From a virus: a stretch of 64,000 bases of DNA. The notes under the pieces are model-generated. The model was not told the origin of the DNA, did no database searches, and saw only the letters and a program-made list of their open reading frames with translations. The stretch's first letter is position 1. Each line of letters begins with the position of its first letter. The stretch is from IMG/VR virus record IMGVR_UViG_3300027906_000002, positions 64,001 through 128,000 of that record; one strand, written 5' to 3'. The translations under genes were made by a program, and so were the position numbers. Positions 1-41,777 of the stretch are shown here, in pieces.

Positions 1-68
1 TTCCATTACTTAGTGACCAAGAATTACACGATTTAACTGTTGCTAAGTTTGAAGATATGTCCCACTAA
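1..68 (+). CDS. 3' end of a hypothetical protein (truncated by window edge)
   Basis: Open frame ...PLLSDQELHDLTVAKFEDMSH ends in TAA at 66-68, directly abutting the next ATG at 69. Confidence 0.55.
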   Translation, partial: PLLSDQELHDLTVAKFEDMSH

Positions 69-332
69 ATGTGGATCAAACGCCCGATTTTTTGCCCTCT
101 CGCTATTAACCAAATGACACAACTTGAAAAGGACATTGCATTTTGCATTGATGAATGTGAGATGTCAAATGAACAAATAGGTGACATATTACGTTGTTGT
201 GAGAATTTAGGAGGCATACCTGTGGAATACTTTGCAGAGGAATTTGTCTTCCTAAGTGATAACGACACTAAGGTACATGATGATGATTACTTAAACATTG
301 CTGAGTTTAATTCTATGTACTGGGAGGCATAA
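69..332 (+). CDS. Hypothetical acidic phage protein (start may be ATG at 114)
   Basis: 87-aa ORF in a co-oriented, tightly packed run; no recognisable family. Confidence 0.7.
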   Translation: MWIKRPIFCPLAINQMTQLEKDIAFCIDECEMSNEQIGDILRCCENLGGIPVEYFAEEFVFLSDNDTKVHDDDYLNIAEFNSMYWEA

Positions 333-334
333 AT

Positions 335-652
335 ATGGACGTAATCATCACTCCTGATTATCAACAACGACACCCTAATCCCCCTATGCCAGTATATCGA
401 GATTACGAAATCACTATTAATTTGAATGAATTAGTAGAACATTCTATCCCACTATGTGATGTCAGACATCCTGACCATTGTTTAACATCAGACCAGATAG
501 ATGAACTCGCTCATTGTTTGCGAGGAGAGTTAGATTTCACCCCTATCTTTAATCAAGCATACGCAATTATTAAGGAGTATGTTACTAAGAGTGGCACAGA
601 ATTGCCGAGTGAAAATAACAATCAACTAGACAAACATTTGCACTATAAGTAA
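335..652 (+). CDS. Hypothetical phage protein
   Basis: 105-aa ORF starting 2 nt after the previous stop. Confidence 0.7.
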   Translation: MDVIITPDYQQRHPNPPMPVYRDYEITINLNELVEHSIPLCDVRHPDHCLTSDQIDELAHCLRGELDFTPIFNQAYAIIKEYVTKSGTELPSENNNQLDKHLHYK

Positions 653-15300: not shown

Positions 15301-18300
15301 TAACGGATCTTCTCTTGTAACATCTAGAGATGGTGAGTATATTTTCCAATATAATTTACCACAACCTGCTACAGTTGAACCACAAGGTAATATTTTAGTA
15401 TCTATTGACCTTAATAAAGGTAAGTCACTTAACACTGCTATCTTTAATGCTATTAGCCCCTATACTACAAACGTACAAAACTCATTCTTTAATGATCAAT
15501 ACGTTTATGTTGCTGCTACAGGTATTCCAAACTATGAAATTGGTCCTTTCCCAGGATCTGCACTTCTTCCAGGCAACCAGCGTAAATTAAACAGGTTCCC
15601 TAAAGTTGCACAAACAATTTCAACTAAAGACATTATTAATCCTGGTCCTATTGGTACATGGGTTAATGGTGTTTCTATATGGTCTTATAAGTCAGATTTA
15701 AGCAAAACATTTGGTGCTGTAACAGGTATTGATATATTAAATGTAGGTAAAGACTATGATGCTGCTTCTCCTCCAGCAATTACCATATCTGGTGGTGGAG
15801 GTGCTAATGCAACAGCAGAAGTAACTGTTGATGGTTCTATTAGTGAAATTACAGTTACCGATGGTGGTTCTGGTTATACAACCTCACCATTGGTCTCTAT
15901 AGTCGGTGGTGATGGGTCTGGAGCTGCTGCTACAGCAATTATTACTAAAGGTGAAGTTTCACGTATTCTAATCAATACTGGAGGTACTGGATATACTTCA
16001 CAACCTTCTATTACTATTGTTGGTGGTGAAGGTACTGGAGCACAAGGTACAGCTTCTGTACGTGGTCCTATTAAATCAATTGATGTTACTAATGGTGGTA
16101 ATTCTTATACTTCAAAACCTACCATATCATTAAGTTCTGGTAGTGGTGCTGTTGCACAGGCTATCGTTAATAATGGAAGAATTATATCTATTGCTATAAT
16201 TTCTGCTGGTCAAGGTTATACTACTGCACCCGAAGTTACCATTCAAGGTGATGGTTTTGGTGCTATTGCAAGAGCAACAATTGATGTTGATGGTGAAAAT
16301 GCTGGTAGGGTAACTGGAATTGAGATTGTTAACAGAGGTATTAACTATCTTCAAGGTACTACAGTTATTAATCTAACTTCTGTTGGTCAAGATGCTTTAT
16401 TTGAGTCAAATGTATTTGAATGGACTTATAATTTAGAATCTACTTCTATATTTGATGACGCAAGAGGTGGTGTATTTACTGGTTATAATAATGAGTATGG
16501 TGGTGAATATGCTCATTTATCCAATCCTCAGAGAATGAGGTATATTTTAGGTGATAACCTCTATAAAGATGCTTATGGTAAAACTTTAGAAAAAGAAGAT
16601 CAGTTAGGACACTCTCCTATTATTGGTTGGGCATTTGATGGTAATCCAATTTATGGTCCTTATGGTTATACTGATCCAACTGACCAAGGATCTGCTGTAA
16701 TTAGACTTAGCACTTCATTTAGATTACAAGAGAGTCTTGTATTTGATGCAACAACCAATCCATATCCTATTAGAAATGATGGACCTCTTCTTACAGATGT
16801 AGATACAGATGGTGATTATCTATATCCTGCAGGTAAATTTGTTGAAGATTATGAATATGTCTTTGGATTAGGTGATCTAGACCAATATAATGGTCGTTTT
16901 TGTAAGACTCCAGATTATCCAGAGGGTAGATATTGTTATTTTGTAACTATTGATGCTACAGAAGATGGTAATGCATTATTCCCATATGTTATTGGACCAA
17001 GTTACAACTCAGTTGTTGATACTTGGAACCTTTCAACTAGTGCGGTACAACAAAATATCCCTTCTGGTGTTGTAAGATATAGAGATCCTTACGAAAATGT
17101 TGATATTGATGTATCAAGAACACCAAATGCTTCTACTGCTGCATTAACCACTGAAGATGGTGATGTGTTGATGTTTGAAGTTGAGGATGTTAACCGTGAT
17201 GGTGTTATTACTGCTGATGAGACTGAAAATCCTGCTGAGATGTTTGAAGAGTCTCCTCTACAGTTATTTGATTATTTCCCTAAAGTTAAGTTTGACTCTA
17301 AAGTTGATATTGAAGTTGAGACTATAACTAAATTTGAAGATGCTTCTGTAACTGGATTTACTATTGAAAACCCAGGAAAGAACTATCAGGTTGATGATAT
17401 ACTTACATTTGATAATTCAGGTACTGACGGAGCTGGTGTTTCTGCTCGTATTTCTAGGATTAAGGGTGAAGCTATAGATTCTTATAGTTTTGAGAACGTT
17501 AATGGATTGAATTACGGTGTCTTAGACACTAATGTCCCACATAATTTGGTTACTGGTGATGAAGTATATGTTGATTATACTCCTATAATGAATAATACGA
17601 ACAAATCTTTTGTTGTTCGTCAAATTAAGGGTATAGAATCTATTGTAATTGATCAGGCTGGTTCTGGATATGATGAGGAGATTCCACCAACAATTATTAT
17701 TGATGGTGATGGTACTGCTGGTAAATTAGAAGCAGTAGTTACTTCTGTTGGATCTATTGATACCGTTAATATTATCAATTCTGGATCAAATTATACTACA
17801 AGTCCTCGTGTTATATTAAGTCATCCACAAATTTTCAAGAAGGCAGATTATTATGTAACAACGATATCAAATAACAATTATGTTTGTGTTAATGATGTCT
17901 ATGTTAATGATGAAAAAGAGACATTCTATTGTGGTAAAACAAAAGATGCTACTGGAAATACCGTTGCATTTATATCTAAGTATTCTGCTCTAGGTGTTAA
18001 AGAGTGGGAAAGAACTCTAGAAAGTACAGTTGGACAATATTATACAGAGTATCAAAAAATATATGTTAATAAGAATGCATATACAAATGATGAAATTTGG
18101 GTTGTAGGTAATAATAGACCAAATGCAAACCTTTTGGATGTTTATAATCCAGATATTATCTTATGTAAGTATACTCAATCTGTAGATGGATTGGATGCTA
18201 CTTTAGATTTCCAAAAAGGATATGCTGGTATATCTGGTGCTAATCGTGCAGATTATGTTACTTGTATTGAGAAATATTCAGATATTCGTTATGTTATTGG

Positions 18301-21300
18301 TGGATATACAAATACAAACTCATTAAATCCTGATGATGCCTTTATAGCATCTATTGATACTACAGGTAATTTTGCTGTTAAGAGAAAGATTGCATCTGGA
18401 ACTTTATCTGAAAGATTAACAGATATGTTAATCATTGGTGATAATGTATATTTCACTATGGAGACTGCTTCTGGTCCCGACTCTAAAGATATTAACTTAG
18501 CTTTTGGTAAGGCTACTATTGGTATCAATGCAATAACAATAGATTGGATAAAGGAATTAAGTAATACGGTTTATTCTTTCTTAAACACTAGCTTAACTAT
18601 AGACGAATTTAATGAGTTTTATGTTACTGCAACTTGCAGACTTAAGTCTGATGATACTACTAAAGATAGTTTCTGGGTAGGTAAATTAAATGCAGAAGGT
18701 AATGTAATTTGGAATTATCGTTATCTTGCTACTGGTAGAGAATTAACCTTAGTTGATAAGGCTGTTATTGATATATTTGGTGATCTTAACGTTGCATATA
18801 CAAAAGATGATCAAGTTACTAGAAAAACAACTGTAGGAACTGTTAAGATTGGTTATGACGGTACTATGAAGAAGCATAGTACAAGTGAATTTAATAAGAA
18901 GCAAATTGAAGGTATTACTGCAAATGCAATGGATGTGGATGTATCTGGTGATGTATACGTTTACGGTCAAACTCAATGGAATAGGAATGAGTTTATTTTA
19001 GATTTTGCTGATGGTGGAGCTCCTCTTACTGATCTCTCTGCTCATTATACTATTACAGATCAAAGTGCTAATAATTCTATACGTTATCTGAATGGTGTAG
19101 CAAAGATTGATGGATGTAATGTACCAGCTAATACTCAAACTACTTGGGAAAATGGTCATATTAAAGCATCTTCTTCTGAGTTAGGTACTACATTGGATGG
19201 TGACTTTACCATTCAGATGATGGTATACATTGATGGAGATTCTGGTCTTCCATTTAGTTTAAGTCAGAACCTTATGACCCTATGTCAGATTGGTAGTTCT
19301 CAGGATGCTACTGGTGGTCTTTGGTTAGGATTTGGTACAGGTCGTGGTTTAGATTTAACAATTGCTAATAGTTCAACTCAAATTGTTAATGCTACTGCTA
19401 TTTCAAGTGCTTCTTCTGTAATGCTTAATAATACTTGGATTTCAGTTGCAATAACTAAGTCTGGAAATCTATTCTCATCATATGTTAATGGTGTTCTAGT
19501 AGCTAGTGGAACTATATCAAATACATCATTTGCTGGTAAGGATCTATACTTTGGTGTTGGACCTGGATTTGGTGCTGGTGTTAACGATTTTGATAAAGAT
19601 ACACAAGGACAATTCTTCCTTGATGATATTAAATTAAAGAATAGGGCAGTAACTCCAACTTCACCATCTGATATTAATGGACTCCCACAAGCATCTCAAT
19701 TTGGTTTTGGATATTCTTGGACAGATACTGCTTGGTTTGCTGCTCAAACAAGAAGATATGAGTATGATGATTATATTGGTTTTGGTTTAAAGATTGATAA
19801 GAATGCTGATTCAGAACGGTTAGGTGATCAAGGATTACAAACAAATACTCAGATTGGATTTGCAAGAACTAATATTGATGTTGTTCCAGGATCACCTTTA
19901 ACTATTGGTAGTACTGGTTTTGAATTAGCAGAAGCAGGTTTCCAATCATTAGACTTTGATGATGCTACAACAACCATGTCTCAGGACACAGAGACACTAA
20001 CTTATGCTGCTGATGTTTGGAGTGCTAGAACTTCAACTGTTCCTTCTCCAGGATCTCAAAAGTTAAGGGTATCTGCTGTTGTTAAAGATAGGTACTACAT
20101 TAAACCTACATCAACAACTGTCATTAATAATATACAAGAACTTACGTTAAATCAGGCATTTGATTTTACAGTTGGTGCTAAATTAGTTCTTCAAAATCCT
20201 AACGGTACGTTTATTAATAGTGGTTATATTATTAAAAAGGATAATTCTGTTAATAAAATATATCTTGCTATTATTCACAATGCTTGGACTGATGATTTAG
20301 ATAATGGGGAATTAGTCACTCAACAATTCAGTGAGCAAGATAGTTATGGTATTATTGGTCCTCTTCCAAATGATATTAATGAAATTAAGAATTATGTGTT
20401 TACTGAGATTAATAACACAACTCCAGGAACATTTGATATAGATCTTGCTACTTTCGATGCACCTTCGGATATTGGTGGAACTAATAATTTAGATGATTTT
20501 GCAAAATTAAAGGAATTTGATGTAAATGATTATTCAATTAGAATAGATGAGGTTTCAGGTGGATCGACATATATTCCTGGATCTGTTGTTGATATTACAT
20601 CTAGTGATATAACATTTAATACTGCTTATAGTACTTGTCAAATTACTAATTTAGCTGGTGTTCTTAAGATTACTTTAACAGCAAATCTAACAAAGATTAT
20701 TCAAGTAAGTTCTGTTGCCAATACTGACGAAGTATATTGTATCACCTCTACAAGTCATTACTTACATACTGGTGAGATGATTTATATTGATGGTAACCCA
20801 TCACAAGAATCTGGTGGTACTACTTACGATGAATATGATGGTGCTTTCCCAGTTGATAGTGTTATCAGTCCATTAGAATTTACATATAAGTTAAATCAAG
20901 CTGCTGTAACTTCACCTTCTGCATCAGCAGCTGCTGTTAGTGTATATGTTAAGTCTCCTGTTTTAAAAATGTATTATGGTCATCAGTATCTGTTTGACCT
21001 AAGCCATTCTTCAATGGTTGGTGGAAACTTATCCTTTGCTAAGGATAATCTTTATAAGTTGGAATATTCATTCAACTCTATTGAGAGAATTGGTATTCCT
21101 GGTGTAACTGGTCAAGGACAACCTACACCTACAGTTAAGTTGAAGATTGACGAGGATATTGTTACTAATATCTCATATTATTTCGATCCATCTAGAACTG
21201 GAGCAGATTCTCCTGTAATTGAAGGTAGTTATCTAGATGTTACAGATTCTCCTTATAAGGGTATCTTTACTATTTCAAGTACTGCTGGTGCAACTATTAC

Positions 21301-24300
21301 TGAAGGTGCAGATATATTCAAGTTCCTTCTTGCTAATGAACCAGAAGGAAATGCAAATGTTAATCAAACAACTTATAGTACAAGTTCTCTGAAAGCAGTT
21401 GGTTCTATTGCGGATGTTCGTATAGTTAATGCTGGTGGATTCTACACTAAATTACCTATTGTTACAGATATTCAATCAACAAGAAATATTGAAAGAGTTC
21501 AAATTAATGAACCAGGTACTGAATATGCTATTGGTGTTTATAACTCTGTTCCTATTCAAGGTGATGGAGAAGGTGGTTTAGTTAGTATTCTAGTTAATGA
21601 TGGGGCAGATGAAGATGGTATTACAATTCCTGGTCAAATACAAGAGGTAGTTGTTACTTCTCCAGGTAAGGCATATACTACTGCTTATGTTGATATTGAA
21701 GGAATTCCAGGTATTCTTGGACCAGGATTACAAGGATCTGGTGCAGAATTGACTGTTGTTATTCCTCCTTTTGGTACTGAGGCATCTATCTTCACCAGAG
21801 GTGATAAGGTTGGTAAGATTAAGAAACTTAAAAACAATAACTTCGGTTATGATTATCCTCATGACTATACTTTACGTCCTGAGATTACATTCCCAATAAA
21901 TGCTCAGTTAACTTCTACAAGTATTCTTGAAAGTATTACTGTTACAAATCCAGGTTCTGGATATTCATTAGCACCTGCTGTAATAATTCAAGGTGGTGGT
22001 GGATATGGTGCTCAAGCTGAAGCATCTATTAAGAACGGTAGATTAGATAACATTGTTGTTAAAGATCCTGGTGCTGGATATTCTTCTACACCACAAGTTA
22101 GTTTAAGATCTTCTTTCAACTATGTTGTTAACTTAGACTTAGGTTTATTACAATTTGCTTATCCTCATGGAATACCCAATGGTGCTGAACTTTCATTAGC
22201 AGTAACTGATACTGGAGATGGTGCTGATTTCCCACTATCTGCTGGTGCTACTGGTCGTCTTAATGGAAATACTACTTATTATGCTATTTCTGGTTCAGCA
22301 AATTCACTAGAGGATGATCAATTAAAAATTGCTATCACTGAGGCTAACGCAGAACTTGGTGATGGTCTTACATTTGTCAATGCTGGTGATGGTCGTCAAA
22401 GTGTATTAACTGAGTCATTTGGTGGTGCTGCTGAAGCTAATGTTATCACATCTACTTTCTTGGAAGGTGAATTAGTTTATCAGGGGGAAACATTAGAAGT
22501 TGCTACTGCAACTGGATATGTTTCTACAAACTCTGGTTGGCAAGTTGGACCTAGAATTCTTAAGATTGTTAATCATGATGGTTTATTTGCAGAGAATGAA
22601 AGAATAACTGGTGTTATTTCTAAGTCTTCTGGTATTATTAGTGATCTTAAAGTTGCTCGTGGTGTGTTAGATATTGGATCTATCACTAAAACTACTGGTC
22701 AATTCATTGATGATGTTGGTAAGCCATCTGAAATTATTCAGAAGATTCAAGACTCTTACTATTATCAGGACTTCTCTTATGCTGTTAAGTCTGCTGTTTC
22801 TATTAGTGAGTGGAAAGAGATTCTAATCAGGAACGTTCACCCTGCATCATTTAAGGTGTTTGGTGAGTTGAACTTAAATGAATATGGTCAAATTCCTAAT
22901 AAGGAGACATTCTTCCAGTTAACTAAATCAGTCGAACTTGCTCAAGAAGCAGTTGTTCCTAATATCCAAAGTTTTGCTCTAGTTGAGCCAATTTATTCAG
23001 AGTTTAATAATACTGAAGTTTTATTCCGTCAAAAGAGATTGACATCTTCTGAGAATATTCTAACTTCTGTTGTTCAACGTGTTGATAATATCGATCACTT
23101 ATTTGATGGTGAGAGAATAGCATTCCCATTAACAGTTGAGGGAGGAACTGTTGTTGCTAACGCAAACCAGTTGATGATCGTTCTTAATGGTATTGTACAG
23201 AACCCAAATACAGCATTCCAAATACAAGGTGATTCTATAGTATTCTCTGAGCCACCTTCACCACCTGCTAGTGTTAAATATGCTAATCTTACTATTAGTC
23301 AGATCCAAACCTATGATTTAACATGGAATAACCAGAGTGGTATCTATCCTCTTATTGGTAATAGTCTTGTTGGTACTAGCTCACAAGCTAGATTAATTGT
23401 AACTTCAGTTACTGGAGATATTATCAGTGGATATATGGATGAAGGTACATTCATTCTTGGTGAATTATGTACAGTCTCTGCAACAGGATTCTCTGGTAAT
23501 TTAGTTGATATTACAGCTGTTTCTAATATTGGATTGTATACTTATGGAGAAACAGTTACTAACCTTCAAGGTGATACTGCTAAAGTCGAACAAATTAACT
23601 TAGAAACTGGTGCAGAAACTCCAGTTTGTGATTTACGTTATGCTATTGGACCTTCTACTACTGAATTTGAAGTAGTTCCTGTCGATGGTACTGGACCACT
23701 TCCTGTTGGAACCATAGATGTAGCCGAGAATGATGGATTCAGAATCGGTGCTGAAATTATGGAAGTACTCACAGTTGTTGATGGAGCTGAATCTACAACA
23801 ATAACCGTAGTTAGGGGTGTATTAGGAACTCAGGCAACTGCCCAACAAGAGGGTTCTCCAATGTATAGTACTGATATTAATGTTACTGAGGCTCTTACAT
23901 TAAGTAAGACTGCTGGTACATATCAGTCTACACCAGGTCTTTATAATATTCAATTGAATGATGTTATTATTGGTGCTAAATCTGGCACTGTATCTAGAGT
24001 TACAACTGCTAGTGTGTATCAAGATCCTGTTACGGGAGAGTTTATTGGTCAGGTTGATATTTCTCCTGGATCTTCATTCTTTGGACTACTATTCAACAGA
24101 ATTACATCTACATCTTATCCAAACGTAGTTATAGATGACATTTCCAAGTCTCAAATTAGTGTTGTCGATTTTGATGATAACGCAACTGCATACAACACAA
24201 ACTTCCCATCAAATGAGATAGTTAGTAACTATGTTATTCCTTACAGTAATGCAGTAGGAACATTGCAGATTGGAGAAGATATTCGTAACTATAAGATAGA

Positions 24301-27300
24301 GTATGGTAATAATACTGGAGAATTTACTGCTGGTGAAGATGGTAGAGTTAGAAAGATATCAATGTATGATAAAGAGGGTGAAGGATTCTTCAATGCAGGT
24401 CAAATAATTAGAACTCGTGATACTAAAGCTGAAGTTATTGGATATAACCAAGCACGTGGAATTGTATACTTAGGTAAGATTGGTAGAAGTCTACCTGATG
24501 GTCAAGATTATTTTGAGTTTGATTTTGCTAATGATGCTGCAATTTCTAATACACAGAAGAAATTTGGAAGTACTTCATTACAATTAGATGGTACTGGAGA
24601 TTATATTGGTGTTGCATCAACAAGTGAAATTGCTTTTGGTACAGGTGAGTATACTATTGAGTTCTGGTGCAGACCAGATACTGCTGCACTAGCAGGTTTA
24701 GCTGAAATTTATGATACTAGAACAGCTGATCCTGAAATTTCTGGAAGGATCTACTTAAATGGTGCTCAGATTCGTTATAATGTTAATGGTTCTGATATTG
24801 TAACTTCTGGTGCTACTGTTATTCCAACCAACAATACTTGGTATCATATCGCTGTAAGTAGATCTGGATCAACGGTTAAGTTATTCCTTGATGGAGTTGA
24901 AGTAGGATCTGCTACAGATAATAGTACATATGTTGCTAGACCAATTAGAATCGGAGCTACTTATTCAGCAACTAATGCATTTGCTGGATATATTGATGAG
25001 TTTAGAATTTCTAGTGTAGCAAGATATACTGGAGCATTTAATCCTCCTGCAGGTATCCATCAAGGTGATGTTGATACTAAGGTATTATTACATTTTGATA
25101 GTACTAATGGAGATAAATTTGTTGATGATTGGTCTGGTGGAGAATCATTTAGTAATGCAGAATACTTTAATAATGATCCTATTGTGGCTTCTAGACGTTA
25201 TATTGGGGATCATAATTATGTTGGTGGTACTGTATCTGGTGCTGTTATTATCCAGCAAGGTATAATATCAAAGGATGTAACTGATGCTACCTATAATGGT
25301 TCGACTGGAGACTTGGTATTAACCATAGGATCTCATAGTTATACAACATCAAATACAATTAAGATTGCTCATAATTCATTAACATTCACTTGTGATATGG
25401 ATAACAATGCTACTCAGCATACTTATCCACGTATAACTGACCCTGTATATGATACTGCAATTGCAATTACTGCAGTAACTGCTACTACAATTACAGTTAA
25501 TGTTGGTGTAGCAATTCAACAAGGATTTGCTAAGAATAGCCACAGATACAATAATGCTGGTCAATTAATTCTTAAGAACTTAGAATTTATTGCGAAAGAA
25601 GTTGTATACATGATTAATCATAGATTCCCTAACTTTACTGTTATTGGAGGAGATGCTAATTGTGAAGATGATGTTAAAGATATCTGTAGATCAATTGTAG
25701 CAGATATGCGTAATGGTGGTAATGATAAGACTTGGCTTGCTACTTCATACTATATCGATAGAGCTGACACAGCAAATGTAAAACTACTTAATATTGAGAC
25801 AGAGGTTAGAGAAACTATCTGGGCTTATAATAAACTTGATCAAATGTTAGAGTTTATTGTTACTAACAGTGAGTGGAAACCAGTTGGTGATCATGGATTA
25901 AAACAATACACTGACACATCTATTACTGATTCTTCCACAACTTCATTCACTTATAAGACACCTACTGGTGCAACTTATGATGCAGACACTGGAGATCTAA
26001 CACTTACTGACGTTGGTCATGGATTAGTTGGTAGAAGAGCAGTAACAGTAGAGGCTGGTACATCATATAATGCTGAAACTGGAATTCTTTCAGTAACATC
26101 TGCAAGTCATCTATTCCAAAATGGTGACAAGGTAATGCTTGAGAAAGAGTCATTGACCTTTACTTGTGATATGGATGGTCATAAGACTGAGCATAAGTAT
26201 CCAAGAGCATCAGATCCAGCACTTGCTGGTTGGTTAACTGTTAGCAATTCACAAACAAATACTTTTGATCTTGATGTTGGTAAGTCACCTCTATTAGTCT
26301 TCAATCCTACTGGTGGATCTTATGATGCATCGACTGGTCATATGAAGTTGCAAATAGGTGATAATATATTAACTCCAGGAACTAATATTAAGGTTGCACC
26401 CAATTCAATTTACTTTAAATGTACAAGTGATGGATTGCAGGCTGTTAAGAAATATCCTAGAACTACAGACCCAATTGCAGGTAAGCCAACCCCAATTGCA
26501 TATGATGGTGAGCAATTAAGTGCATCATTTGCTAACTATACACCTACAACAGGTGTAATGAGGATTACTGCTGGTAAGACATTCACTCCTCTTGATGCAA
26601 CATATAATGCTGTTAATGGAATGATGAATTTAACCATCCCTGATCATGGAATGGTTGCTGGTGATACTGTGAGATTGGAAGATGGTGCTATAACATTCAC
26701 ATGTGGTATGGATGATCATTATAGTACTCATGCATATCCTAGAACTACTGATCCTAAGAGAGGACTTCAGTTATCTATTACTAATGTTCAGACTCATTCA
26801 TTCTCAGTTAATGTTGGTATCTCACCTAAAGTTCAGTTAACACCTAATAATGGTTCTTATGATCCATCTACAGGTTTAATGACTTTAGAATTTAATACTG
26901 CTCATGGATTAACTGCTGGTACAAGTATTAAGATTGCAAAAGAATCATTAACATTTAGTTGTGGATTTGGTGGTGCTTCTGGCGATGCTGCTAAGAAGTC
27001 TTATCCAAGATCTACTGACCCATTCTATGATACTGCAGTCAAGATTGAATCAGCAACTACTAATGCTATTACTGTTAAAATTCTAGAGAACGTTCCTTCA
27101 ACTAACACTGATACTCATACTTGGGTTGGTGCTACAACTGGATGTATACACACTGGTGGTGATTATGAGCATATCTTCCATAGTGCTCTTACTAATGGTG
27201 TTGTTTGGAATAAGCATGGTCTTGTTAATGGAGATAGAATTAAGATTGCTACCAATTCATTAACATTTACATGTCAGTTAGATAATCAAATAACTGAACA

Positions 27301-30300
27301 TTCATATCCTAGAGCAACTGATCCTTATAATGGAAGATGGTTGGCAGTATCTAATGTAGGTGCTAATACATTTGATGTTAATGTTGGAATTTCTCCTGAT
27401 ACTTCATCACATATATTCAAATCAGCTTATTTAAATGGAATTACTAAGAGAGATGGAAGTATAACTCTTGATGTTGGTAAGTCACCTAGAGTTGGATATG
27501 ATGTTGCTGGTGCGACATATGATCCTCTTACTGGTGATATGGTTCTTAATGTTGGAATTCATAATCTTCTAGAGAATCAAACGATACAAATTGCTGATAA
27601 TGGATTATCATTTACATGTGCTATGGATGGTAATGCAACCACACATAGTTATCCTAGATTAACTGATCCATCTCGTAAGCATGCACTTAATATTACTGAT
27701 GTTGGTGAGACAAGTAAGACTGTAAGTGGAGCAAGTTATACACCAGCTTCAGGACAAATGAGTCTTACTGTTACTGGACATAATCTTACTCCTGCTACAA
27801 CACATACACCAACTAATGCAGTTTATAACCCTGCTACTGGTGAATTAGAGTTAACGATTGTTGGTCATAGTTTTGATAATGGTGATAGGATTCTACTTGA
27901 TGATGACTGCTTAACATTTACATGTGCTAAGGATAATCATCAATCACAACACACATATCCTAGAGCGAGTGATCCATCTAGTATGAAGTGGTTGTCTGTA
28001 CAGAATGTACATGTAGATAGATTCACAGTTAATATTAGTAAGTCAACGGATATATCTGAGCATAGATTTATTTCTGCTACTTCAACTTGTTTGAAGAGAG
28101 CAAAAGATTCAGTTAAGTTTGATGATGATTCAATTACATTTAGATGTGATTTGGACTCTCAAGCAACTGATCACACATACCCAAGAGTAAGTGACCCTGT
28201 TCATCAACAATGGATTCCTATTACATCTTCACCAGATGCTAATACTATTGTTCTTAATGTTGGTAAGTCTTCTGATACATCAACACATGTATATCAAACT
28301 GCAACTTCTGGCGGTCTAAAAGCACAAACTGGATATATTACAGTTAATGTTGGTAAGTCACCTACTGTTTCACATAACCCATCATCAGTAACATATACAC
28401 CTGGTAATGGTTCTATGGCAATGAGTATTGGAAATCATTACCTTCGTGGTGGATCTCAGCATACAGCAACTACTGCATCCTATGAGGCATCAACAGGTAT
28501 TATGACCCTTAGTGTTGCTAATCATGGATTCTCTGTTGGTGATTATATTAAGATTGCAGAGAACAGCATTACATTTACATGTACTATGAATGGTAATGCA
28601 ACTAATAAGCAATATCCAAGATCTACAGACCCATCATTCAATAAGTGGTTGGCAATTGTAGGAATAACAACAGATACATTCCAAGTTAATGTTGGTGCTT
28701 CACCTCTTGTAAAACATAATGTAACTACTGCAACATATGATCCTGCTACTGGTCTTATTGAAGCAACTATTGGATCTCACACTCTCGAAGTTGGTGAGCC
28801 AGTAATGCTTAAGGATTATGGATTCTCATTTACTTGTGGTCTTGATGGAGATACAATTTCTAAGTTATATCCTAGAGAAACAGGATTTATACAGAATGCT
28901 GGTGTTGCTGACCCTGCATGGAGAACTCCTGTAGTAATTACTGCTAAGAGTGCTACAACAATTACATTTAATGTTGGTACTTCATCTGATGTAACTGCTC
29001 ATAACTGGACTGGTGGTACATCTTCAGAAGCAATAGTTTCTGGTGGTGATTATGACCATACATTCGTAACTGCTTCTACTAATGGAGTATACAGAACTAA
29101 TGAAACCGTGATGATTGGTGAAGAGTCTATGACCTTCACATGCGACTTTAATGGTGATGGTAATACTACTGAGAAGAAATACCCTAGAGCATCAGGTTCT
29201 AACGCTCCTGGTGGTGCTGATTATGCATATAACAAACCTGTTCCTATTACATCTGTAGGAACTAATACACATACACCAACTTTAGCAACTTATGTTCCTG
29301 CTACTGGTGTTATGAACATCCAGTTGGTAAATCATGGATTCGCATTATCAACTAATCATACAGTAACTGATGCAACATTTACAGCAACAACTGGTGTAAT
29401 GAAACTCACTGTTGCTGGTCATGGATTCCAAGAGGGAGATAGAATTAAACTTGGTGATGGATCTTTAAGATTTACATGTGCTAAGGATGGTAATGCAAGC
29501 AATCATGACTATCCTAGAGCATCTGATTTTGCAAGTAATAGATGGTTACCAATATTCAATGTAAGTACTAATTTCTTTGAAGTTAATATTGGTAATATGT
29601 TTGGACCAGCAGCGATTTCACATACGACTGCACATGCATTTGTATCTGCTGTTGCTAATGGATTAACCAAGGCAAATTCTTGCATCAAACTTGCAGAAAA
29701 TGCATTAACATTCACATGCGGTAAGGATAGTGGTGCTAGTGAGCATTCATATCCAAGAAGAACTGACCCATCATTCGATGAGTGGTTACCACTAAGTAAT
29801 GTTCTAGTAGATTCATTTGATGTTTATATTGGTAAAGCTAGTGATACATCAACTCATACATTTGTATCTGCTGTTGCTGGTAGTCTTCATAGTCAAACTG
29901 GTGTTATTAATTTGAATGTTGGTATATCAACTGACACAACTACTCATAATTATGTTGCTGCAACTAAGTTAACACCCACTAATGCTGCTTACAACCCAAC
30001 TACAGGTGTCATGACTATCACTGTCAATGATCACAATATGGCAAATGGTGAGCAAGTTATGATTGATGATGGTGCTATTAAGTTAAGTTGTGCATTTGGT
30101 GGTGCATCTGGTGGTGCTGCAGAGAAGGATTATCCTAGAGCATCTGACCCTGCTAGTGGTAGATGGTTAACTGTTTCTAATGTTTCTACCAATTCATTTG
30201 ATGTACAAGTATTAGATGTAGTACCTTCTACAAACACTGATGCACATTCATTCGTATCTGCTGTTTCTAATAGTATTACTAGAGGTATCTTAAGAACTGG

Positions 30301-33300
30301 TGGTAATCACAGTCATACATTTGCTAAGGCAAGAAAGAATGCTGTAATCGCTGGTGGTATCTATAGACATGAGTTTGTTTCTCCTAGTGCATATACAGTA
30401 ACTGATGGTGCTTACAACCCAACTACAGGTGTGATGACCCTTACAATTCCTAATCATGGATTTGAATCTGGTGATTATATTATGATGGATGATGATTCCA
30501 TAGTCTTTAATTGTAGTTTTGGTGGTAGTGCAACAGATAAGTCATATCCAAGATCATCTGACCCAATTAGCGGTAAGTATGTACCTATAGGTAATGTAAC
30601 TACTGATACATTTACTATTCAGGTATTAGATTCTACACCTTCCACTAATACTGATGCCCATACATTTGTATCTGCATCTACTGGTGGTGTTCATAGAGCA
30701 GTACTTCATACAGGTGGTGTTTATAATCATACATTCAAATCTGCTACTATTAATGGAATATACAATCAGGGTCAGGCAATAGAAATTCTACCTGATGCAC
30801 TTAAGTTTACTTGTGATATGGATGGTGCAGAAACTAATCACCCATACCCTCGTAAGACAGATCCAGCATACAAGTCTTCATTACCTATTACTCATTACAC
30901 TGCTGATACATTTACTGTAAATGTAGGTAGTACTACTTTTGGTGATAATAGAAATTATACTTCATATACACCTTCCTTTGCTACATACGATCCTTCTACT
31001 GGTATATTAATATTAACTATTGAGGGACATCCATTAACTTCAGATGATTATATCACCTTAGATGATAATGCATTGAAATTTACATGTTTAATGGATAATA
31101 ATCAGACTACTAAGTCTTATCCACGTCCAGGACATGATGTTCGTGCAGCAAGAAGGAAACTTAAGGTTCTTGGAACCACGGTCAATACAATAAGTCTTAA
31201 TGTAGGTGCTGCACAAGCAAACCAAACATTTACACCTTCTGATGCATCTTATGATGCTGAGACTGGTGAGATGACCTTAACAATTGGTCAGCATGGTATG
31301 AGAGTTGGAGCAAACGTTACTATTGCAAATGGTAGTTTAAGATTCACATGTGGAATGGATGGCAACACTGCTAATAAGGATTATCCTCGTGCAACAGATC
31401 CATATGGAGATCTTAAGTCTATTCCAATTACTCATGTAGGTCATACACACGGAACAGTAACAAATGCTGTGTATACTCCTGCATCTGGTTTGATGGTTCT
31501 AACCGTACCTGCACATGGATACTCTAATGGAGATTATATTCAGATTGCTGATGAATCATTAACACTAAGATGTTTGCTTGATGGTAATAGTACTGATCAC
31601 TCATATCCAAGATCTACTGATTATCCTTCAGGAAGATGGTTACCAATCTCAAATAAGACAAATGATACATTCGAGGTTAATGTTGGAGTTTCACCTGATA
31701 CTACAACACATGTATTCCAGAAAGCTGCTACTAAGGGTATTAGAAGACAGAGTGGTGTAATAACAGTTAATGTTGGTAAATCACCTGTTAAGGGATATGA
31801 TGTAACTGATGCATCCTTTGTTCCTGGAACTGGAGCTCTAACTGTTACCATAGGTAACCATAGTTTAACTACAGGTACAGCAGTTAGAATTGCTAATAAT
31901 TCACTTGTATTCCGTTGCGATCAAGATGGTCAAGGTTCTGATCACTCATATCCTCGTGCAAATGGTCAGGGTGGTGCATCTGGTAATGACCCTGCATGGA
32001 ATACAGCAGTCAATATTACTGCTGTAACTCCAACATCAATTACTCTTGATGTAGGAACCTCAAGTAATACAACAACTCATGTATTCCAGAATGCGAATAA
32101 TACATATTCACCTACTAATGCTTCTTACAATCCAAGTACAGGTGTTATGACATTAACCCTTGCTAACCACGGATTTGTTAATGGTGAGCATGTTAAGATT
32201 TCTGATGGTGGATTGAAGTTTACTTGTGCTCATGACGATTATGCAACAACTCATGCATATCCACGTTCTACTGACCCTGTAAGTAATAAGTGGATCCCAA
32301 TTTCTAATGTACAGACTAATACATTTGATATACAGGTATTGGATGTAGTTCCTTCTACTAATATAACCGCACATACTTTCCATTCTGTAGTTGCTAATTG
32401 TCTTACTAGATCAGTTATTACTACTGGTGGTGATTATACACATACATTTGTAGGTAACCAAGGTTCTAATACTGTTTCATATACTCCACAAGCATCACAT
32501 ACATTCGTATCTTGTGATGCTGGAGCAGTTAAGCACCAATTAACAATACACGATTTTGCACAAACAACTGCAAATGGAATTAAGGTTCTTAATTATAATA
32601 CATCCGATTGTACTGATGTACAAACAACTATAGAGAACTTAATTAGTATTGTTACAGATACTTTAGATGCTGCACTACAAAATCCACCTCTTGATTATCT
32701 TGGTAGTCTTGTTAGATATTCACCTCCACATGAATTCCTTGGTGGTAGAATATACTCTTACTATGAAGAAGAGTTCCCAATTAATTGGCATGATGGTACA
32801 GAAGATATCATGTTTACTAATCAGATTGGTCCTGCAGGTAAGTACAGATTTGTAGATGCTGCCAATTTAGTTCAGTTAAATGCTGGTCCTATTGTAGATA
32901 AAGCATCAAACGATATGCTTACTTTATATCCAGATCTTGCTTTGGATATGCCTAGAAACTTTGATGGAAGTGGTGCTGGTACATTACAATGTAAGACTGA
33001 CTTAGCGTTAATTCTTCAAGAATTCATTAAGGATCTTAGGGATGGTGGTAATTTCAATACTGTGAATGTTGCTAAGAGATATCTTGGTAGTAATGATATT
33101 CTATTACACATTCGCTTACAGGCATTCCAATCTGCATATGCTCATGAGCGTCTTGCATATTACATGAAGCAAGCAGTTAATGGTGATTTAACAACAGGTA
33201 ATACTGATAAGATCGTTGTTGGTGCTTGGGGTATTACTCAATCTAATTCAGCATCATTCACTCCAACTGGAGCAACTTATGAGCCAACAACAGGTGACTT

Positions 33301-36300
33301 AGTGTTAACTATTGGTTCTCATACCTTAGTTAAAGGTAGAATGATAAGAATCGCAACTGATGGATTAACATTCACTTGTGCTCTTGCTGGTGGTAACCAC
33401 ACATATCCTAGAATTACAGACCCTGTATATCTACAGAATATTGAGATTACTGATGTAACAGCTACCACAATTACTGTTAATGTTGGAATTTCTTCTAACA
33501 CTTCATTACATACATTCGTATCTTCTGTTACTGATTCAGTAACTGCTCCTGGAGATTGTACAAACGTTACTACTGCTATTGATAACTTAGTAACTATTGC
33601 AAACGATATCATTGCTCCTACAAATGCTGATTTTGCAATTGCTGCTGATAGACTTTACTTTAATAGAGATGGTATTGCGGATGAGATTACTGCTCTAACA
33701 CGAGTAGAGTTTACTTACATGTTAGATACCTCTCAACAGTTTGCATTCTCTTATCCAGAACCAGGTGGAGAAACTACATGTGCTAGAGACTTGAAACTCA
33801 TTATATTGGGTATTATTTCTGACTTGCAGACTGGTGGTAATAATAGTACTGTTGCTGCAATGGAATACTACTTATCTTCTGCGATGCAAGTCATTAACGT
33901 TGAAGATGAACTTCTAGCAACAGTTTATGCTATAGAGCAATTAGGATGGTTATGTGAGCATGCTGCTAAAGGTGAGTTAAGAGTTAAAGGTGGATCATCA
34001 GTTCCTCCTCTTTATGCTTACCTACATTCAGCTGATACTCCATATAGTGATAGTGAAACACCTACTGATATGTCAGTAGTTGGAACTAGAATTAAAGAAT
34101 TGGTTAATACCGCAATTAATATTCTCGTTCCAGGTAAGAGACCTATGAGAGGTGCTGCTAAGAACTTAATTTTCAATAGAGGATACTATAAAGAAGAAAT
34201 TACAACTCTAGTTAATGCACAGTTTGGTACTAATACTTGGTTATACAATGATTGGGTTGATAGTATTATTACTAACATGAGTCACGATTTGTTAACTACA
34301 GATATTAGTGATTCTATTATTGCTCATGATATATCAATTGAAAGTGTTATTGGAAGATTTGAAGTTGGTGAATTAATCACTTCAGATAAAGGAACTGCTA
34401 AAGTTTTAGAATATAATTCAGAAACTAACTTATTAATTGTTGGTGAATTTGTGGGAACTCCTTGGGGATCTAATACTTCATTAACTGGAACAAAATCTAG
34501 TGCATTAGCAACTGTTTCTGTCAATGGTGTTGGTAGTAGTTACACTTGGTTTAATTCACCAGGTAATGTAAGGACAATAAATTTTGCTAAAAATATTACA
34601 TCAAATATTTCTGGTCAAGTTTCTGGTATTAACTTATTCACAAATCCAGAATTGTTTGTACCTAATTGGACAGGTACTGGAGTTGGATTTAGTGATAACT
34701 TTACAGTTGCACCAGACAATACCAGTACTGCAACTAAATTAATTTCTAGTAATACTGGTGGTGAGCATACTGTTGATAGATTATATAACTTAACTGCATT
34801 TGATACATGGGATGATGGTGGTATTACGTTTGACGATACTACAAATAGTTTTGATGAAGGTGGTTCTGGTACTGGTGATGATCAGCAATATACATTCTCA
34901 TGCTTCTTTAAGAAGGCAGAATATGAGCAAGTAAGATTCCATATCATACTTGATGATGGAACTGCTGGAGAACAAAGTATATTCTTTGATCTTAATATGA
35001 ATACTGGTAACACAGGTACTTTGTTTATACCTCAAGGTGGTATATCAGGTGATGCTTATGGTGCTGTTCCTTATGGTGGCGGTTGGTATAGAGCATATGT
35101 TACAACAACATTCTCATTTGGATTTACTGAACTTAAGGCTAGAATTAACGTAGCAAATGAAAATAATCAGATATCATATACTGGTGATGGGAGTAAGGGT
35201 GTTTATGCTTGGGGTTCAAAACTTTCTAAGGGTACGTTAGATCCATATACTTCTGCTTCTGATGGAATATTCTATGCTGATGGTGAGTTTAATATTAAGA
35301 GATACGCATTAGATAGATTGGAAGAATATATCATTGCTGCAATGACTGATGGTCTTACAAGTCCATCTCCTGAAGCAGGATATTTAAAATTCTTCTCTGC
35401 TGATGCTGCTGGATATTATGATATTAGATCTGTAAGTAGAGTTGTACGTGATAATCTTAAATTACTCAGTGAGCAATTAGCAGTTGATACTTATTATACT
35501 ACTGTTACAGTTAACAATGGAATTACAATTCCTACTTACACATATGGTACTAGAGAATTGCCAGTTGGATTAGGTGGTGGATTAAAACCTTCGGATTACT
35601 TATATGGTACTGCTAGTGATAGTTACGCTGAATTAGAAACTATTGTTCCTAACAAAGGTGAGATTGTTAAGATCTATCAGAGATTCCGTTTTGATGGTGA
35701 TGTGGTTGATGGTCCTTGGGTCATGAACGAGACAGTTGCTAAGAATGGTGACGCAACCGTTACTGGTGTTATATACGCAATTCATGAGGATGAGAACTTT
35801 AGTTACATGGATATTGAAGTTACTGGTAATCCTTGGGCTATCACTGATTATGTTGTTGGTTCTACAAATAACACAACAGCACAGATTAGTTTGATAGAGG
35901 ATCGTATACAAATTATCGATCTTGATGGTGAGTTTGATGCAACAGTACCATTTAAAGGATATACCAGTGGCGGTACTGCTACTCCTACTAGCTTCCTTAG
36001 AAATGAGGCTGCTATACTTAATAATACTGGTGGTACTTTAACGGTTGATACTGAGACTCTTGTTGGTTCATTTGAAAAAACTTCTGTTGTTTATCCAGAA
36101 ACTTCCAGACAATTTGTTACTGTAAGTAAATATAATGGTTTAGATGTTGGTGTTGGTGACAGAATCGCATCAAATGGATATGTCAGAATTGGTATTTCTA
36201 TTATTAGTGATCTAAATCAATTTAGTGTTGGTAACAGACTTTATAAAGTTGTTGGTGGTGTTGCTGATCAAAATAATTATGCAATTATTACTGAGGTTGA

Positions 36301-38780: not shown

Positions 38781-41777
38781 ATGGCAAGAACTGTTCCTGG
38801 ATCTGGTGCTGTAATTGAACCTATATTTGACGAAAAATTTGGTGTTCGTGCAATACAAGTAGTTGATGGTGGTATAGGTTATGATGTAACCAATCCTCCA
38901 CGATTGACTGTTACTGGATGTGGTACTCCGACTCAGGAAGCACTTCTATATCCAATTATTGATGAGTTATCTGGAAGGATAGTTCATGTTAGAGTTTTAG
39001 AAAGAGGTCTTGGATACGACCCTCTTAGATTGCAGATAATACCTACACAAGACACACCAACTGTCGTTCGTTCTTTTGATATCAATAGGATATGGCAGTC
39101 ACATCCCAATTCACCCACATCTGGTTTATTCACTTCCGATAGTGACAGACTGAGAATACAAAGTGATAATCATCCAAAACCAACACCACTATTAGCAGAG
39201 AGAGCTCCTGGTGGTGGATCTGGTGGTACTCTTGCTCAGTATACACCTTCAGCAATTAACTACAATCCTACTACTGGTTTAATGGAAATGACCATTGGTA
39301 GTCATAGTTATACTACAGGTGATAGCATTAAAATTGGAACTGATTCATTAACATTTACTTGTGCGTTAGATGATCATGGAACCGATCATACATATCCTCG
39401 TGCAACTGATCCAGTAGCAGGTGTTGCTATACCAATTCTTTCTACAACATCTACAACTATTACAGTACAAGTACTGGGTGTTGCTCCTGCAACTAATACC
39501 AGTGCTCATACCTTTAAGTCTGCTACTTTTGGTGCAGTTAGTAGTGGTGGATCATTAGTAGATCGTTCATTTGATCAAACTTACATTTATAGGGGTGGTA
39601 AAGATGCTCCGAATCCTGATGCTAGAGAAGAGCAACTTAATAAGGCATTAGGTCTATTGGCAAATGGAGTTCAACTTCATACTCCAGAATGGGGTCAAGC
39701 TGGCAATCCTACTCCTGGATTTTCAATTGATTCAGTTAAACATTCGCATATTAAAAGTAATACTTCTTCTGATGCAGTAATAGATGGTAACACTTATTAC
39801 TATCAATCATCTAGATTGATTTCTGAGTTTGCTGAACATAATGGTGTGTTTGATTGGGGTAAGATTAGACCTTTTACTTGGAATATAAAAACAGAATTTG
39901 ACAACTTGATGTTTGAGGTTGGTAGTGTTGATGAAACTTTAGGTGTAGTTGAGATTGGTAGGACTATAGATGCTATAGCTACCACTGCTAAAGCAGAAAT
40001 TGCGAAGATTGTAAGAAATAATTTAGGAAGTATAACCCACATTTATGTTAGAAATATAAGAGGGTCTGATGAATTTGCTGAGAATAATGTTGTTTTGGGA
40101 TCTACTGGATTTAGTTTTAAAATATTAGAACCACCAACAGAGTTAACTAACGGTATTTTTTATATTGATTTTGGTCCAGATGCTACAGAGTTTGGTCCTT
40201 TTGTTGATGGTCAATATTACTTTGCACCAGAAAATATTAAGGTGCAAAGAAATTATTTAATTATTTGGAATCAGACCGATTCAACTAATCAACCTTCTGG
40301 GAATCATCCTCATGGACATCCTATGCAGTTTAGTACCACACAGGATGGGTTGTTAAATGGTGGTAGTTTATATTATAAGAGTACGGGAGTAACAGAAGCA
40401 CCATCTACAGATTATGAAAATGAGTTTAAACCTCTATTCATAATGAATGGTGATGAGAATAGTAGAATTTATTATTACTGTAAGTATCACAGATATATGT
40501 CTGGGTATGAAGGTCATGAAGGATATATGACTTTGGATCTAGAAATAGATGATGATCCTTTACCTAATGATTATTATATTACAGACTATTATCAGAGTGA
40601 TGATAGTGATCCTAATACGATAAATTATTCACGGCATGCTGATGGTCATTCTAAAATATTAGGAATGGCATTTGATGGATATCCAATTTATGGACCTTAT
40701 GGATATGATTTAAGTGGTACTAGTGTTTTAGATACTATCCCAGTTTTATCTGAATATGCTGGTCTTTTCTTCCAGGTTGGTAATGGTTACCCAACTTCAA
40801 ATAACGATCCTGCACAAACTGGTACTGGTTGTATTGTTGATGTAGTTACAATTGGTACTTATCAGCCTGGTGGTATTCTTACAATTAGGATAGCTGAAGG
40901 TGGAAGTGGATATGCTATTGGTGATAAAATTAGAATCCTTCATAAGTATGATGGAGCATTGGTATCTGGATATTCGCATAGTTCTTGGAATGCTAATCCA
41001 GATAGAACTGAAGGAGTATATGGTGAAGTTGGTACTGCGTCTGAATTCACAATTCCAGCTTCATGGACTTCTGCTAATGGTGTTGGTGGTAAACCTAAAG
41101 TTACTGTTGCTGCTGATGGTTCTATAAGTGGTTTTACTATGGGTGGCAATGGACCTGAGGCAATACCTGGACCAGATGGTAATATGGGATATAATTATGT
41201 CGAAGATGAGGAGTTTACTATTCCTGGTAATTACATTGGTGGATCTACTCCTGCAGGTGATATACTAGTCAGAGTTGCTTGGGCTACTGATGATGATAGT
41301 GGAGTTGCTGAAATTACTTCTGTAGGTACTGGTCTTAAAAGAGAAGTTACTGGATTTAGATACAGAGTAGGTGATGAATTAGCTGGTGCTAGACCTGATG
41401 TAGTTACTCCAGAAACTATAACTTATGTTGTAACAGTTGCTAATGGTGAGTTTAATATTGGTGGTAGTACTGTTCCTTTCTTAAGTTTATGGAGAGGAAA
41501 GACATATGTATTCCAACAGAATGATTCTAGTAATGATAATGAACAGTTATTAATATCTACTACTGATGATGGATGGCATGCTGGCACTCCACCAGATACA
41601 ACATATCTTTTTGAAGGACCAGGTATTACCTATTGGTTAGAAGGATCTGAAGTAACTTATAGTGCTTATATTAGTGGGTTTAATGCTGCTACTGCAAGAG
41701 AGATAAGATTTGAAGTACCTGTAAATCTCCTCTTGCTTTGTATACCTTTGGTTATACAACTTCTGGTATTGGTATAA
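38781..41777 (+). CDS. Virion structural protein, YHYH-domain; 5' part of a frameshifted gene
   Basis: HSKILGMAFDGYPIYGPYG is the first half of a YHYH domain; in-frame sequence degenerates after EVPVN at about 41726. Confidence 0.75.
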   Translation: MARTVPGSGAVIEPIFDEKFGVRAIQVVDGGIGYDVTNPPRLTVTGCGTPTQEALLYPIIDELSGRIVHVRVLERGLGYDPLRLQIIPTQDTPTVVRSFDINRIWQSHPNSPTSGLFTSDSDRLRIQSDNHPKPTPLLAERAPGGGSGGTLAQYTPSAINYNPTTGLMEMTIGSHSYTTGDSIKIGTDSLTFTCALDDHGTDHTYPRATDPVAGVAIPILSTTSTTITVQVLGVAPATNTSAHTFKSATFGAVSSGGSLVDRSFDQTYIYRGGKDAPNPDAREEQLNKALGLLANGVQLHTPEWGQAGNPTPGFSIDSVKHSHIKSNTSSDAVIDGNTYYYQSSRLISEFAEHNGVFDWGKIRPFTWNIKTEFDNLMFEVGSVDETLGVVEIGRTIDAIATTAKAEIAKIVRNNLGSITHIYVRNIRGSDEFAENNVVLGSTGFSFKILEPPTELTNGIFYIDFGPDATEFGPFVDGQYYFAPENIKVQRNYLIIWNQTDSTNQPSGNHPHGHPMQFSTTQDGLLNGGSLYYKSTGVTEAPSTDYENEFKPLFIMNGDENSRIYYYCKYHRYMSGYEGHEGYMTLDLEIDDDPLPNDYYITDYYQSDDSDPNTINYSRHADGHSKILGMAFDGYPIYGPYGYDLSGTSVLDTIPVLSEYAGLFFQVGNGYPTSNNDPAQTGTGCIVDVVTIGTYQPGGILTIRIAEGGSGYAIGDKIRILHKYDGALVSGYSHSSWNANPDRTEGVYGEVGTASEFTIPASWTSANGVGGKPKVTVAADGSISGFTMGGNGPEAIPGPDGNMGYNYVEDEEFTIPGNYIGGSTPAGDILVRVAWATDDDSGVAEITSVGTGLKREVTGFRYRVGDELAGARPDVVTPETITYVVTVANGEFNIGGSTVPFLSLWRGKTYVFQQNDSSNDNEQLLISTTDDGWHAGTPPDTTYLFEGPGITYWLEGSEVTYSAYISGFNAATAREIRFEVPVNLLLLCIPLVIQLLVLV

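Follow-up and report, generated by a model that had tools for sequence, protein, structure and literature searches.

Our results strongly support a model in which residues 4539-6746 of a giant viral protein form a tree of 21 homologous beta-barrels, each of about 100 residues, and this tree was very probably built by recursive insertion of barrels into the loops of other barrels. The protein is encoded by a single open reading frame (ORF) of 8,394 aa (12341..37525, + strand) in positions 64,001 to 128,000 of IMG/VR record IMGVR_UViG_3300027906_000002, the 64,000-nucleotide stretch that we refer to as the window and whose numbering we use throughout. Judged by its sequence, it is a gp7-like protein that belongs to the baseplate wedge of a cyanophage related to T4. 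The order of barrel pieces along the chain obeys a nesting grammar, and predicted structures point to outer barrels that are discontinuous in sequence and to a mode of folding in which the barrel opened last is the first to be closed. A first-pass annotation of this DNA had proposed that a single module was recursively inserted into its own copies to give a branched array, and this idea is now supported by the grammar, by shuffled controls, by two AlphaFold2 models and by the gp7 proteins of other cyanophages.

The module is made up of four pieces: an N piece of hairpins, a C piece that forms the core (FTC...YPR..DP), a V strand (FxVNVG) and a closing strand, H (HxFxSA). Profile hidden Markov models (HMMs) for the N- and C-halves, built from nine intact units and iterated on the giant protein itself, identified 23 copies of each half, all within aa 4310-7069, and in 18 of the 23 cases an N-half and a C-half are adjacent. 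The next piece after each of the other five N-halves (aa 4539, 4727, 5125, 5344 and 5643; nt 25955, 26519, 27713, 28370 and 29267) is another N-half, and five C-halves (aa 4964, 5256, 5587, 5780 and 6144; nt 27230, 28106, 29099, 29678 and 30770) lack a preceding N-half. These are the five orphans of each kind that had been reported from inspection of the letters, recovered here in the same order and within ~20 nt of the positions then given. Every orphan N-half breaks directly after a conserved 'H-G-aromatic/aliphatic' turn and every orphan C-half restarts at a 'G-D-x-I-x-I' strand, so that the joined halves regain normal spacing.

The two short pieces complete the inventory. In units 4, 8, 11 and 19 the C-half stops short of its final strand, FxVNVG, and exactly four free-standing V strands are present, at aa 5040, 5332, 5855 and 6473. 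With a position-specific scoring matrix (PSSM) these strands score 11-18 bits, where the best match outside the array reaches 14; the strand at aa 5040, assigned to u4, scores 18.5. For the closing strand, a short HMM lacked sensitivity, and we instead scanned with a PSSM trained on the 14 strong or obvious copies only; the remainder of the protein served as control. Five more closing strands were found at scores of 11.7-20.9, compared with 9.7 for the best in 5,600 residues outside the array, and four further closing strands, weak by this matrix, were accepted on flanking motifs (GG.Y.H.F or G.S.D...H). Scanning with a PSSM trained on this protein also produced false positives at two places outside the array, aa 1021 and aa 4291. 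Each of the four kinds of piece is present in 23 copies in the array region. Closing strands are stacked three in a row at His 5969/5992/6010 (nt 30245-30397) and four in a row at His 6678/6701/6720/6737 (nt 32372-32578). Both stacks had been noticed before, at ~30240-30390 and ~32370-32590, and taken to imply a second insertion point. That point is real, and it is one of three sites used in this protein.

To read the order of the pieces we used a stack parser in which every N piece starts a new unit and every C, V or H piece, arriving in that order, is assigned to the most recently opened unfinished unit. The parser accepts the 92-piece string completely and returns a tree of 21 units with u2 as its root (nt 25955-32578), preceded by one single unit (u1) and followed by another (u23). 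No shuffled string parsed (0/100,000) under any of three nulls, in which all pieces were permuted, the 38 natural fragments were shuffled, or the 29 incomplete fragments were shuffled among their own slots. The deepest path of the tree passes through seven barrels (u2>u3>u4>u8>u11>u12>u13), and a single loop holds as many as three siblings. Three sites are used: five insertions lie between N and C, four between C and V, and eleven between V and H. The bracket string originally drawn from the N- and C-halves, A( 2 3 B( 4 5 )6 7 C( 8 )9 D( 10 11 )12 E( 13 )14 15 16 )17, proves to be a correct projection of this tree onto those two pieces. Within the tree only nine units out of 21 are contiguous, and the piece order runs N NCV NC N NCV NCVH H CVH and so on; the array does not consist of complete units arranged head to tail at regular spacing, as an ordinary tandem-repeat fibre does. 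As in the Si3 insertion of cyanobacterial RNA polymerase discussed below, discontinuous domains hold complete copies of the same domain between their pieces; in the phage array the order is strictly well-nested, beyond chance. When the pieces are spliced as the grammar prescribes, all 23 units align colinearly from end to end, almost gapless, at 40-54% identity. The pieces of the outermost barrel u2 are separated by as much as 2,200 residues; once spliced, this barrel most resembles two contiguous units, u23 (49%) and u1 (45%), which occupy a position like its own beside a helical domain. At 41% identity, the nests u9[u10] and u14[u15] are paralogues of each other.

Structure prediction was carried out on unaltered natural nests, and not on spliced halves. 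The first AlphaFold2 model covers aa 5120-5334 (window 27698-28342), the nest u9[u10] with its guest in the N-C loop, and was computed from an alignment of 39 homologous nests from marine viral contigs. It has a mean predicted local distance difference test score (pLDDT) of 94.1 and a predicted template modelling score (pTM) of 0.85, and the strand pattern of its outer unit repeats that of its inner unit. We compared the models exhaustively with 48,161 PDB chains, taking as ranges the first and last aligned residue. Residues 33..135, which correspond to the inner unit u10, match the E1 FCCH domain (4p22_B, Z 8.0, 76 aligned) and the phi92 endosialidase barrel (4hiz_A, Z 7.9, 81 aligned). The whole span of the model (start 1-5, end 211-214) is matched by single-domain barrels with 65-85 residues aligned at 2.4-3.8 A, among them Gar1 (3hay_B), 4pgo_A, 7anu_B and the P22 I-domain (2m5s). 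Domains of only 74-124 residues can match such a range only if, in the predicted fold, the opening hairpins and the final 80 residues share one compact barrel. The second model, aa 6199-6733 (window 30935-32539), represents u18[u19[u20]V[u21][u22]] and was computed from an alignment of 24 sequences (mean pLDDT 80.1, pTM 0.55). Here barrel domains match residues 169..274, three PDB entries match 94..518 with 80-83 residues aligned, and two match 4..535 or 6..535 with 74-84 residues aligned; the spans predicted by the grammar are ~170-270 for u20, 98-513 for u19 and 10-532 for u18. Jointly the two models cover all three insertion sites.

The unit itself is mostly beta, and its best structural neighbours are small six-stranded barrels. 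The best matches to one unit (4p22, 2v31 and 4hiz) have VIA Z 8.0-8.8 with a root mean square deviation of 2.5-2.6 over 76-82 aligned residues; the P22 I-domain reaches Z 5.6, and FNR-type barrels give Z 5-6.7. Z scores near 8 do not show homology to FCCH-type barrels, because such values are typical in this search for models without relatives, and we describe the modelled unit as FCCH/FNR-like by shape only. A Foldseek search of the PDB with a predicted model returned nothing at E<=0.001, and a sequence search of the PDB found no relative. Single units have no Pfam match even at E<=10, PF16190 included, PF16190 is not matched anywhere in the giant protein at E<=0.01, and no NCBIfam profile matches the module. 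Among ESM Atlas clusters that match the fold of the first model, one carries PF16190 (E1_FCCH), and the predicted models in BFVD already include the double unit (TM 0.88). Public sets of predicted structures thus hold such nests already, unremarked. The FCCH domain of E1, the phi92 endosialidase barrel and the I-domain of the P22 coat protein are themselves inserted guest domains. These small barrels resemble one unit of the phage array and share its role as guest in another domain, but, unlike the phage unit, they are not known to host copies of themselves.

The array is found in other viruses as well. Seven independent IMG/VR contigs from different metagenomes, with 90-94% identity across the 538-aa stretch of u11, retain its string, except that in some of them a weak V or H token or two went undetected or came up in excess, and about 70 further viral contigs carry many other nested strings; with family-wide profiles the contigs yield 1,002 N and 1,003 C pieces in total. 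For distant phages we relied on the N and C profiles and on one hand parse (P-SSM4), because the PSSM trained on the giant protein loses the V and H pieces there. N and C counts are equal and balanced in the complete proteins of the isolates P-SSM4 (11/11), P-SSM3 (11/11), P-RSM6 (18/18) and S-TIM4 (6/6). Balance is reached in S-SSM7 and P-SSM7 once weak hits are added, the apparent imbalance being due to a divergent N-half missed by the profile in the former and to a unit whose C piece is split by a guest in the latter. In the hand parse of P-SSM4 gp7, 11/11 units close, at a depth of five levels. Comparing nesting strings across cyanophage gp7 proteins, a check that the first-pass annotation had suggested, thus reveals the same grammar with mostly different trees: all six isolates keep the grammar, and their trees differ except that P-SSM3 and P-SSM4 have the same one. 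Whole units also appear to come and go, since in one-guest homologues of u19 the closing strand aligns across a 210-aa gap that equals u21 and u22, the signature of whole-unit insertion or loss.

The gp7 proteins (labelled 'baseplate wedge initiator') and giant structural proteins of cultured cyanomyoviruses have gene position, giant size, module and nesting grammar in common with the window protein. They differ from it in that their trees have 6 to 18 units, compared with 23 units here, and in that identity in the array region is <60%; gp7 of S-SSM7 is in addition split into two genes of ~3,000 aa, unlike the single giant of the window. Two isolates also reveal extra insertion sites inside the C piece, beyond the three used here. 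In the giant ORF of P-SSM7 (aa 5598-5800) a guest unit lies between 'TFSC' and 'YPR', and in P-SSM4 gp7 (aa 5154-5330) a guest follows directly after 'YPR', before the 'DP...I..V' strand.

Several of our observations temper the model of a nested tree. Four of the 23 closing strands are weak by PSSM (His 5554, 6010, 6701 and 6737), and strands are predicted in the second AlphaFold2 model at one of these, His 6701, and at His 6720, which is not weak. The discontinuous barrels are deduced from first and last aligned residues on predicted models, not from a solved structure, and at a pTM of 0.55 the second model does not predict the relative placement of barrels and thus the real three-dimensional shape of the 'bush'. 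Co-ancestry of the N- and C-halves in interrupted units is also non-discriminating: the correlation is 0.215 overall, compared with 0.00 +/- 0.11 for random pairing, and the pairing required by the grammar ranks only 20th of 120. This last result, together with the lack of an experimental structure in the PDB and the fact that equal half counts alone cannot separate last-in-first-out pairing from other pairings, leaves some room for a linear chain of modules with no nesting in three dimensions, in which orphan halves are complemented by neighbours or by other chains through domain swapping, or are degenerate remnants. We consider such a chain very improbable. Every C, V and H position fits the state of the stack exactly, which swapping would not demand, barrel matches in both models span exactly the predicted limits of the outer units, and orphan pieces are conserved as well as those of intact units.

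Phage fibre proteins are often repetitive and rich in beta-strands, and the module has relatives that carry a tail fibre annotation. The pieces could accordingly be strand types of a continuous, possibly trimeric, beta-fibre, with the apparent grammar reflecting fibre register. We give this reading equally little credence, as the confident monomeric models are compact barrels that resemble solved single-domain barrels at the Z scores and aligned lengths given above, a contiguous unit is a complete 100-aa domain that is found singly in the baseplate ORF 38781..41777, and T4 gp7 is a single-copy wedge protein rather than a trimeric fibre. Short-read metagenome assemblies can mis-order repeats, but we regard an assembly artefact as next to impossible here: at the DNA level the copies share no more than 60-86% identity, in stretches not exceeding 110 nt, the 25-kb frame stays open, seven contigs from different metagenomes have the same string, and sequenced isolates obey the grammar. 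We therefore favor the nested tree.

The assignment of the host protein rests on its profile matches and neighbourhood. The giant ORF matches PHROG 701 (virion structural protein) over its full length, several 'baseplate wedge subunit' PHROGs, and PF23786 (Baseplate_wedge) at 30.6 bits, with a cut-off of 27. It is flanked by genes for gp25, gp6, a gp9-like connector, further wedge proteins, gp8 and a VrlC-like giant; like T4-type gp7, it combines a wedge domain with a position between gp6 and other wedge genes. The order gp25-gp6-giant-gp9-like...gp8 is common to the window and P-SSM4, and P-SSM4, P-SSM7, S-TIM4 and P-RSM6 have an equivalent layout, with a giant gene of 6,603-8,573 aa labelled gp7 or 'structural protein'. 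All 341 of the phage records that match the array region are cyanophages or marine viruses, and none of the 341 is >60% identical to it in protein sequence; marine metagenome contigs reach 90-94% identity across the 538-aa stretch of u11. The gp7-like layout and the restriction of matches to cyanophages and marine viruses indicate that the window comes from an uncultured T4-like cyanophage, Kyanoviridae-like. The N-terminal 4,280 aa of the giant protein (window 12341-25200) contain many short G-x-G-Y-x-x-x-P-x-V repeats, a YHYH domain at aa 1387-1539 and, at aa 2271-2440 and aa 4083-4228, a pair of concanavalin-like Laminin_G_3 domains, which gives the protein several candidate carbohydrate-binding parts in addition to the barrels.

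We propose that the chain opens a barrel, builds whole child barrels in its N-C, C-V or V-H loop and closes the open barrels in reverse order, such that the outermost barrel would begin at aa 4539 and be closed ~2,200 residues later. The ends of a barrel are probably adjacent and its three insertion loops exposed, and for this reason each barrel could be both host and guest. The tree may have grown by in-frame duplication of units or subtrees into permissive loops, with u9[u10] and u14[u15] as a possible example, and may have been retained because only well-nested orders fold. In T4, gp7 is present in one copy per wedge and six per baseplate. By analogy, each virion would carry six compact branched clusters, or 'bushes', of 21 barrels at the baseplate periphery. 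As a conjecture, their most likely role is that of a compact, branched, multivalent surface or scaffold for contact with the host envelope, which would be plausible for a peripheral baseplate protein with lectin-like domains as well.

Conservation across the family was computed over 635 N and 712 C pieces. In the N piece Tyr (91%), Gly (99%) and His (93%) are conserved, and in the C piece Phe (90%), Cys (99%), the Asp three residues after this Cys (91%), Tyr-Pro-Arg (99-100%) and a further Asp (96%); in the closing strand a His is the defining residue. The N-piece His and the closing-strand His are placed right at two insertion points. The near-invariant N-piece His, the Cys-x2-Asp of the C piece and the closing-strand His could form a clamp, through metal or hydrogen bonds, that would hold the three separated pieces of an interrupted barrel during the synthesis of as many as 2,200 residues of child barrels. 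We tentatively extend the model to a joint proposal that, taken as a whole, is rather unlikely to be correct in all its parts: each wedge would bear a monomeric dendritic bush whose topology, the distribution of subtrees over loops, is evolvable and sets how the phage contacts the surface of Prochlorococcus or Synechococcus, with a His/Cys-x2-Asp/His clamp at the insertion points.

Domain insertion is usually one level deep. The recursive insertion of one fold into itself is nevertheless already known, mainly from cyanobacterial RNA polymerase, and we view the phage array as a new instance of this principle. The Si3 insertion in the trigger loop of the beta' subunit (RpoC2) consists of eight sandwich-barrel hybrid motifs that are not in tandem, four of which, SBHM-2 to -5, are discontinuous and built from distant stretches of the chain (PMC10895346). 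A 2026 survey of 2.7 million domains took the six-level Si3 nest as its complex example (PMC13114784). The first-pass annotation knew of no description of this architecture in phage baseplates, and our literature search found no paper or annotation describing nesting in a phage or a phage baseplate; the principle itself has a precedent in Si3, for which both reports describe it. The two systems are alike in using repeats of one small beta domain, several of them assembled from distant stretches with other copies in between. They differ in fold and setting, as Si3 has about eight copies of the sandwich-barrel hybrid motif in a cellular enzyme, whereas the phage array has 21 copies of a different barrel in a virion protein and is known from sequence and predicted models, not from a solved structure. 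The phage tree also branches, with up to three siblings per loop and three insertion sites per barrel, and at seven barrels it has at least as many levels as Si3.

The array would accordingly represent a second, independent natural system of recursive same-fold insertion, located in a virus particle, with related phages that bear different trees. It raises a folding question, as the first hairpins of a barrel would be made minutes before its last strand during translation, and it makes it possible to test where a small barrel can accept whole domains as guests, information useful to protein design. It also opens the way to studying how domain trees grow and are pruned in evolution. Marine cyanophages are among the most abundant viruses in the ocean, and the array bears on what their oversized baseplates use such structures for. 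Annotation is affected too, as programs that look for repeats or call domains on the premise of tandem order will divide such proteins wrongly.

The units and helical stretches are listed in the table. Three cysteine-bearing helical domains, each following one barrel (u1+A, u2+B and u23+C), frame the array. The stretch formed by u1 and its helices is 33% identical over 248 aa to that formed by u23 and its helices, and the helical stretch aa 6880-6950 aligns with aa 7143-7213 and aa 4437-4504. From these alignments the layout reads as three super-repeats of barrel plus helical domain, with the tree apparently hosted by the middle barrel only. We also considered that the whole array might sit in a loop of a helical domain and set this aside, as the alignments fit the simpler reading of three super-repeats with the middle barrel as host.

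Table. Barrel units and helical stretches of the giant ORF (window coordinates, + strand). Labels are those of the bracket string; guests are given with the pieces between which they lie.
Feature	Label	Extent	Pieces	Guests or position
u1		25268..25570	contiguous NCVH	followed by helical domain A
Helical domain A (~aa 4413-4538)		25268-25954 (with u1)
u2	A...17	25955..32578	N 25955-26026; C 30770-30895; V 30908-30934; H 32549-32578 (weak, His 6737)	outermost; u3 in N-C, u18 in V-H
u3	2	26063..30757	N 26063-26110; C 26123-26248; V 26261-26287; H 30728-30757	u4 and u17 in V-H
u4	3	26300..30397	N 26300-26362; C 26378-26500; V 27458-27484; H 30368-30397 (weak, His 6010)	u5 in C-V, u8 in V-H
u5	B...6	26519..27439	N 26519-26575; C 27230-27358; V 27368-27394; H 27410-27439	u6 in N-C
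u6	4	26579..27199	N, C, V 26579-26824; H 27170-27199	u7 in V-H
u7	5	26837-27145	contiguous	inside u6
u8	7	27494..30343	N 27494-27568; C 27575-27703; V 28334-28360; H 30314-30343	u9 in C-V, u11 and u16 in V-H
u9	C...9	27713..28315	N 27713-27787; C, V, H 28106-28315	u10 in N-C
u10	8	27800-28090	contiguous	inside u9
u11	D...12	28370..29974	N 28370-28438; C 29099-29257; V 29903-29929; H 29945-29974	u12 in N-C, u14 in C-V
u12	10	28457..29086	N, C, V 28457-28702; H 29057-29086	u13 in V-H
u13	11	28712-29029	H weak (His 5554)	depth 7, inside u12
u14	E...14	29267..29884	N 29267-29341; C, V, H 29678-29884	u15 in N-C
u15	13	29354-29662		depth 7, inside u14
u16	15	29969..30274	contiguous	third child of u8
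u17	16	30392..30688	contiguous	second child of u3
u18		30962..32527	N, C, V 30962-31213; H 32498-32527	u19 in V-H
u19		31226..32470	N, C 31226-31438; V 31757-31783; H 32441-32470	u20 in C-V, u21 and u22 in V-H
u20		31454-31738		in u19
u21		31793-32107		in u19
u22		32102-32401		in u19
Helical domain B (~aa 6745-6970)		32579-33253
u23		33254..33538	contiguous	single unit between helical domains B and C
Helical domain C (~aa 7070-7330)		33539 to ~34330

Two minor features lie outside the array. The closing-strand-like motif D-H-N-Y-V-G-G at aa 4291 (nt ~25211; PSSM 10.3), between the second Laminin_G_3 domain and u1, has no opening pieces upstream and may be a chance match or the remnant of a lost unit. 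A further contiguous barrel unit (N 35.9 bits, C 63.7 bits) is located at window 39240-39550 in ORF 38781..41777, the next-but-one baseplate gene, and is the only barrel unit of the window outside the giant ORF.

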